From: an uncultured Verrucomicrobiota bacterium | GTDB lineage: Bacteria > Verrucomicrobiota > Kiritimatiellia > PWTM01 | Assembly (NCBI GenBank): GCA_964610105.1 | Contig: CAZSUU010000015.1 | Span: forward strand, 11,600-75,599 | Direction of reading: 5' to 3' | DNA length: 64,000 nucleotides | Program-made: the position numbers and the translations under genes | Shown here: piece by piece, positions 30,509-30,640 of the stretch | Position numbering within the stretch: position 1 is the stretch's first letter | How the letters are laid out: each line of letters starts with the position of its first letter | The notes under the pieces: model-generated | The model's input: the letters and a program-made list of their open reading frames with translations, nothing else | Databases searched by the model: none | What the model was told of the DNA's origin: nothing

Positions 30509-30640
30509 GCGGCAAAGAGGCGCTCCCTTGCGGGAGCGGAACCATGAACAAAGCAGTCTGGAAAGTGACAACCGGAAATCAGGACGTGACACCTGGGGTT
30601 TGGAGTCTGAGGCTTGGCTCATGCGGACGGAGAAGCTGAA

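Follow-up and report, generated by a model that had tools for sequence, protein, structure and literature searches.

In the 64-kb stretch of DNA analyzed here (the window), the genes for an F-type ATP synthase form a complete operon, and sulfatase and sialic-acid genes come after it. Kiritimatiellota are a sulfatase-rich, glycan-degrading, and mostly uncultured phylum, and the best named matches of the window's atpG gene come from Kiritimatiellia and Verrucomicrobia metagenome-assembled genomes. The GC content of the window is 69.9%, not the 68% given in the initial annotation. Spacer DNA makes up about 5.6 kb, or 9% of the window, and all three window copies of the short sequence described below (the box) lie within it, on one strand.

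Several other features of the window deserve mention in their own right. A vapBC-type toxin-antitoxin pair (46495-47072, minus strand), consisting of a PIN-domain open reading frame (46495-46869) and a MazE/AbrB-type antitoxin open reading frame (46866-47072), occupies what at first glance had seemed a 1-kb non-coding low-GC island. A hexamer microsatellite-like sequence, (AATCGC/AATCCC)n, lies at 48870-48930 in a 431-nt spacer, with an inverted partner 130 nt off at 49053-49073. Two tandem paralogues, each a fusion of a GntR and a periplasmic-binding domain (AraR-like), flank a small minus-strand gene at 39014-42176; one strain, L203, lacks the sequence corresponding to window 40118-41885, as if the GntR-fusion paralogues had recombined. 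Finally, the Logan assemblies contain the strain at 100% identity in many samples, and their contigs break at the window start and at about 31400-31510 inside atpD, which suggests repeats or strain variation at these places.

Three intergenic sites with near-identical cores had been proposed in the initial annotation, and all three are found where it placed them: the pattern GGAGTCTGNGNCTTG is matched at exactly three places in the window (30602-30616, 32515-32529, and 43183-43197), always on the plus strand and always in a non-coding spacer, against an expected count of 0.01 for this pattern, which was picked post hoc. The full extent of these copies, together with two doubtful relatives, is as follows.

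30596-30625, plus strand: copy 1, GGGTTTGGAGTCTGAGGCTTGGCTCATGCG, nhmmer E = 1.7e-5
32509-32538, plus strand: copy 2, GGAGTGGGAGTCTGAGACTTGAGCCCTGAG
43177-43206, plus strand: copy 3, TGAGTTGGAGTCTGTGGCTTGAGGCGTGCG
22414-22427, minus strand: doubtful half-site, TGGAGTCTGGTTCT, with a 9-nt exact half-match TGGAGTCTG; nhmmer E = 11; not counted as a copy
52526-52544, plus strand: doubtful partial relative, GTTTGTGTCTTGAATCCTG; nhmmer E = 5 with the 3-copy model and 0.25 with a 5-copy model

Aligned in register, the three window copies share 17 to 18 invariant columns across about 30 nt, giving a shared box of about 29 nt (20-30 nt) with the consensus GAGTTGGAGTCTGAGGCTTGAGnCnTGCG; this can be read as a consensus of about 20 nt, T-K-GGAGT-Y-TG-N-G-N-CTTG-R-N-N-C-N-T, plus a looser 29-nt extension. 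Identity falls steeply, from 13 of 15 positions in the core to near-random flanks, and the box is G/U-rich, C-poor, and without structure. A profile built from the three copies recovers them with nhmmer at E = 7e-6 to 4e-5, and no extra copies appear in the window when one mismatch is allowed together with Y at position 6. Since the next profile match after the three copies has an E value of only 5, the weaker relatives that had been suggested at about 18668 and 22418 do not rise above noise: neither is prominent in a position weight matrix scan, the site at 22418 is the half-site with E = 11, and the site at 18668 is not listed by nhmmer at all. The partial relative GTTTGTGTCTTGAATCCTG, which has no GGAG, lies in a divergent spacer upstream of a GH76 gene and resembles the 3′ two-thirds of a fourth copy. 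This copy 4, TTGGAGTTTGCGTCTTGAATC (GGAGTTTGCGTCTTG), was found on the minus strand in 9.5 kb of same-strain flanking contig beyond the window, whose left side is a contig end. Over the 73.5 kb scanned in all, the density is thus about 1 copy per 18 kb, as 4 single copies with no clusters or pairs. The half-site itself sits between two G+C-rich hairpins with related stems located directly past the larC stop codon (22395-22447, minus strand); hairpin 1 is GGGCTTCG-CTTG-CGAAGCCC, with a CUUG tetraloop, and hairpin 2 is CTTCGC-CC-GCGAAG.

The genomic neighborhoods of the four copies are as follows: i) copy 1 lies on the plus strand in the 132-nt spacer between atpG and atpD (30509-30640), 93 nt past the atpG stop codon and ending 12 nt before the atpD Shine-Dalgarno sequence GGAG (30629), with the atpD ATG at 30641; all remaining spacers of the atp operon are 18 nt or shorter; ii) copy 2 lies 84 nt past the atpC stop codon in a 200-nt convergent spacer, with the stop codon of the opposing GlcNAc 2-epimerase gene at 32631, and is 27 nt ahead of a hairpin at about 32557-32578; iii) copy 3 starts at, or 2-3 nt past, the stop codon of a CN-hydrolase gene (by Pfam) in a 163-nt convergent spacer, with the stop codon of the opposing GlpD-like gene at 43343, and is 76 nt ahead of a strong hairpin (43274-43293); and iv) copy 4 also lies in a convergent spacer, 55 nt past the stop codon of, and sense to, a gene of the glucosamine-6-phosphate isomerase family (NagB-like), and 133 nt from lpxB on the opposite side. 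The earlier description of these sites, as lying downstream of the atpG, atpC, and CN-hydrolase stop codons with copy 1 in a long spacer near the atpD ribosome-binding site, is borne out; the convergent setting of copies 2 and 3 is new.

Each of the four copies reads in the same direction as the nearest gene upstream of it. Within the convergent spacers, the distance to this sense gene is always shorter than that to the opposing gene (85 versus 102 nt for copy 2, 3 versus 146 nt for copy 3, and 55 versus 133 nt for copy 4), and this is also true of the larC half-site (21 versus 235 nt); copies 2 to 4 all follow the stop codon and precede the first strong hairpin. Because there are just four copies, the argument from orientation is worth only p ~ 0.03-0.06.

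Whether such a recurrence exceeds chance depends on where one looks. The initial annotation held that it is not expected by chance in 64 kb; this fails for the window as a whole, in which about 25 distinct families of triples match at 13 of 15 positions (with A/T at 5 or more of them in every family), mostly in coding DNA, but stands within the spacers and out of sample. If the match arose by chance in spacer DNA that is limited in quantity and odd in composition, and was spotted post hoc, the box would be one such triple, and dinucleotide shuffles of the spacers that ignore composition do yield some 13-of-15 triple in 17% of cases; when the same shuffles carry the A/T restriction, however, a triple appears in 1 of 400, and neither a same-strand triple nor 17 or more invariant columns out of 31 appears in any of the 400. 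Moreover, the likeness reaches about 29 nt, with the nhmmer E values given above. Both the pattern and the statistics, including the shuffle tests, were chosen after inspection of the data, and an out-of-sample check was therefore sought in new flanking sequence: the 9.5 kb contained one copy, copy 4, against a pattern match in 0 of 100 shuffles. We conclude that the recurrence of the box in spacers is real and beyond chance, and we regard chance convergence as unlikely.

We were unable to find the box as a family in the two large DNA collections scanned. The extended pattern TNGGAGTCTGNGNCTTGNNNCNTG gave 22 scattered single matches in 185,579 GTDB reference genomes and 37 in JGI metagenomes, in both cases from unrelated taxa and with none from the source organism; match numbers in the two collections are at or below the roughly 50 estimated for chance, as the chance explanation would have it, and in none of the 185,579 reference genomes is the box a repeat family. 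One match is more extensive: a 40-nt look-alike of copy 1 in JGI contig Ga0326727_10006097 (L189, positions 1541-1580), an unrelated contig of 61% GC, where it encodes part of a signal peptide, LSLGVCGLVHANGE. With p ~ 0.05 after multiple testing, this look-alike is probably due to chance. The box sequence appears in no paper in the literature searched, which also held nothing relevant on intergenic motifs of Kiritimatiellota; the box is not previously described.

A few properties of the box raise the question whether it is a coding sequence or the relic of one, in the form of small open reading frames or C-terminal extensions reading (W/G)-S-L-(R/W)-L-(E/G). In the (W/G)-S-L frame, 15 of 43 differences among copies are synonymous, compared with 7 of 48 and 3 of 42 in the other two sense frames, examples being AGG/AGA/CGT (Arg) and CTG/TTG (Leu); the phase relative to the upstream stop codon is identical in all four copies (2 mod 3); and a 31-codon open reading frame (30544-30639) spans copy 1 and ends 1 nt ahead of the atpD ATG. 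Yet there is no consistent start or stop: an in-frame TGA lies 8 codons upstream of copy 2, copy 4 is without a start codon, and, in the related strain described below, the ATG of the copy 1 frame falls in a deleted 48-nt segment, and the loss of 4 nt immediately ahead of the box changes the reading frame there. A small open reading frame or leader peptide was accordingly rejected, no open frame with start and stop being kept among copies or strains, as was an N-terminal extension of atpD from the in-frame TTG within copy 1, because the atpD N-termini of relatives agree with the ATG at 30641. The synonymous excess, the shared phase, and the L189 look-alike, each with p ~ 0.04-0.05, may be coincidence, and we consider a coding origin highly improbable.

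The box also shows neither a common RNA structure nor promoter or terminator signals. No RNA hairpin is shared among the copies, whether the three spacers or 71-nt windows are folded (z-scores of -0.4 to +0.9, no improvement on shuffled sequence), and copy 4 is likewise without a shared fold. A search of the window against Rfam gave no matches at gathering score, and up to E = 5 returned only chance matches, none of them over the box. No terminator-like site lies at or beside any copy, and the hairpins 27-76 nt downstream of copies 2 and 3 have no U tracts. The box regions contain no -35/-10-like hexamers of a sigma-70 promoter; judged by eye, TGG and TTG stand 2 nt too far apart for a sigma-54 site.

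Might the box instead act in DNA, as an operator-type site for a regulator or a nucleoid-associated protein? Its length of about 17-20 bp with a conserved core would suit an operator, copy 2 holds the 5-bp mini-palindrome AGTCT-G-AGACT, and two GntR/sugar-binding regulator genes lie near copy 3 (39014-40111 and 41079-42176). Against this, an operator would have no promoter to act on at three of the four sites, which lie in convergent spacers; copy 1 sits within an operon, and promoter-like hexamers are absent nearby. Dyad symmetry is restricted to copy 2, and the conserved flanks, GGAG and CTTG, lack symmetry; the resulting asymmetry of the box argues against a dimeric DNA-binding protein. We find an operator decidedly unlikely.

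Comparison with known repeat classes is no more favorable to a conventional element. Like the REP and BIME sequences of Enterobacteria and Pseudomonas, the box is short, non-coding, lineage-specific, and located where genes end or between the genes of an operon; but REPs are imperfect palindromes that form stem-loops, number in the hundreds, are often clustered in inverted pairs, and are associated with RAYT transposases, whereas the box has no dyad or fold and occurs as single, unclustered copies at about 1 per 18 kb over the 73.5 kb. The suggestion that it might be a small REP-like element is thus unsupported, for there is no shared hairpin, the copies are single, and the likeness is confined to 17-38 nt. 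A MITE was rejected on the last point as well: pairwise alignments of the spacers share only these 17-38 nt, on the same strand, with no 100-400-nt unit, and nothing else in the copy 1 spacer recurs in the 73.5 kb. Uptake sequences (Neisseria DUS, GCCGTCTGAA, and Pasteurellaceae USS) resemble the box in having a short core, a looser consensus of about 29 nt, and a location near gene ends, and the Neisseria DUS even shares GTCTGA with the box core; their density, however, is about one per kb, with copies on both strands and often in inverted pairs, and 4 unpaired copies in 73.5 kb led us to reject this class too. A likeness to Rickettsia palindromic elements, and to other small insertions that occur in frame inside genes as well as in spacers, rests on a box-like sequence that lies in frame in a MacB/FtsX-like gene of a related strain, within a 110-nt stretch considered below; unlike those elements, it is not palindromic, and what it has in common with the box amounts to just 13 nt.

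We were unable to follow the box to relatives of intermediate distance, for there are none in the protein database: beyond the same species (98% identity), the best atpG match is 55% identical. In three relatives with 50-53% identical atpG, the atpG-atpD spacers are -4, 44, and 12 nt long and 7-40 nt follow atpC, and the box is absent from 55 kb of these three genomes. Because distant relatives have short spacers and no box, both the long spacers and the box are taken to be new in this lineage.

Within the species, one strain of about 96.5% DNA identity could be compared (L137, L204, and L205/L206). Copy 1 of this strain, GGAGTTTGAGGCTTGGTTC, has 2 substitutions, 4 nt are deleted immediately 5′ of it, and the atpG-atpD spacer lacks a 48-nt hairpin segment (30511-30558) that contains in the window the hairpin GCGCTCCC-TTGC-GGGAGCG and is flanked by an imperfect direct repeat (GCAAAGAG / GGAAAGTG). 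The 63 nt around copy 2 are unchanged in L204, with 6 substitutions elsewhere in the spacer; copy 3 is unchanged in L205/L206, with 5 substitutions and one indel elsewhere in the spacer, and two of these substitutions alter the loop of the downstream hairpin but leave its stem intact. Altogether, substitutions number 2 in 87 nt of box and 14 in about 356 nt of surrounding spacer, a difference that is not significant, and the comparison at 96.5% identity gives no evidence for or against purifying selection on the box. In the third strain, L203, similarity to the window stops 1 nt past the CN-hydrolase stop codon; a different gene comes next and copy 3 is absent. To judge from this strain, copy 3 is dispensable.

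Another possibility is that the box is a non-functional micro-repeat, left behind as a mutational process particular to this lineage lengthened the spacers, for example by small templated insertions, by slippage of G/T-rich hexamers, or as the termini of a small non-autonomous element; in that case the copies would be alike through youth and not through selection. Much of the strain and lineage evidence fits: i) the spacers themselves are new, as the short atpG-atpD and post-atpC intervals of relatives indicate; ii) they are fluid between strains, with the 48-nt and 4-nt indels beside copy 1 and the similarity of L203 ending exactly at copy 3; iii) the box changes at the background rate of the spacers; iv) C-poor, hexamer-like sequence surrounds it, with (GATGGTT)x3.7 and GGGAGT GGGAGT preceding copy 2; and v) L203 contains GTTGGAGTCTGAG within a C-poor, hexamer-periodic, low-complexity stretch of about 110 nt (5470-5580, SVSLSPSNSNSQFLIPNRTRNPNRSLSLSDSN) that is rich in (CGATTG)/(GGAGTT) repeats and lies in frame within the open reading frame of the MacB/FtsX-like permease, and positions 5510-5536 of this stretch match the microsatellite-like sequence at window 48870-48930 in 25 of 27 nt; the 110-nt stretch also aligns loosely with sequence downstream of copy 3. 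The box may thus be one recurrent piece of a looser class of G/T-rich, hexamer-like, low-complexity DNA. On the other side, no copying mechanism emerges, the box having no terminal inverted repeats, target-site duplications, or transposase; the tandem repeats called by Tandem Repeats Finder do not include the box itself; the extended pattern is repeated in not one of the reference genomes searched; and neither the sense orientation nor the steep profile of identity from core to flanks is predicted by a micro-repeat. On balance this origin is possible, if somewhat doubtful.

The same two properties point in another direction, since a steep drop in identity from core to flanks fits a recognition site better than it fits a uniformly decaying mobile element. 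Given in addition the sense orientation of the box, its position between stop codon and hairpin, and its G/U-rich, unstructured sequence, our best guess is that it is a species-specific box carried in the sense direction in 3′ untranslated regions and intercistronic RNA, and recognized there by a trans-acting RNA or protein. We hold this reading at low confidence, and a non-functional micro-repeat is nearly as likely. The data establish that the box recurs, that it lies in spacers, how it is oriented, and that it is unstructured; each functional step is inferred. The box would act in the transcript and not in DNA: in 3′ untranslated tails the order would be stop codon, box, and first strong hairpin, and in copy 1 the box would stand in intercistronic RNA directly upstream of the atpD ribosome-binding site. 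We infer that the unstructured G/U-rich stretch could be bound by a partner, whether a base-pairing small RNA, an RNA-binding protein, or a nuclease, and that this partner might influence 3′-end processing, mRNA stability, or translation of atpD; alternatively, the 3′-UTR copies could themselves be the common seed of sibling small RNAs derived from 3′-UTRs. The box may thus be a binding site or a processing signal, both of which had been raised from the start; what speaks for either is indirect, namely the sense orientation and, in the three convergent spacers, the position ahead of the hairpin. Against a role in the transcript, the box is no more conserved than its spacers, copy 3 is lost in L203, the copies number four, no partner sequence complementary to the box is present in the 73.5 kb, and the box has neither a shared structure nor a known RNA family.

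Among known systems, the seeds of sibling or 3′-UTR-derived small RNAs (Qrr1-5, OmrA/B, and CpxQ-type) or their mRNA targets offer the closest parallel of this kind, being likewise unstructured stretches of 15-30 nt amid unrelated sequence. The box, too, follows a stop codon in sense orientation and precedes a hairpin; unlike such seeds and targets, it is without a partner in the 73.5 kb and confined to one species, and copy 1 is not followed by a terminator. Taken one step further, the parallel would suggest a small post-transcriptional regulon in which the shared box is the seed of sibling 3′-UTR small RNAs, or a docking site for a small RNA or protein. We think a regulon of this kind improbable. 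If it existed, it would couple expression of the beta and epsilon subunits of ATP synthase with amino-sugar catabolism (the NagB-like gene) and with polyamine synthesis, the latter on the reading that the CN-hydrolase is N-carbamoylputrescine amidase-like.

We wish to stress that the box, with few copies, one species, no structure, and no measurable selection, is for these reasons a modest curiosity: a small spacer motif that is real, restricted to this species, and in general terms of a familiar type. If it is a neutral micro-repeat, it records the growth and turnover of spacers between strains of one species, which would be useful for strain tracking and unsurprising otherwise. If it acts in the transcript, it could help to account for the unusual 132-nt gap amid the genes for F1 ATP synthase. 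To our knowledge, almost nothing is known of non-coding regulatory signals in Kiritimatiellota, and a sense box in 3′-UTRs, if true, would be a first handle on post-transcriptional control in this phylum.
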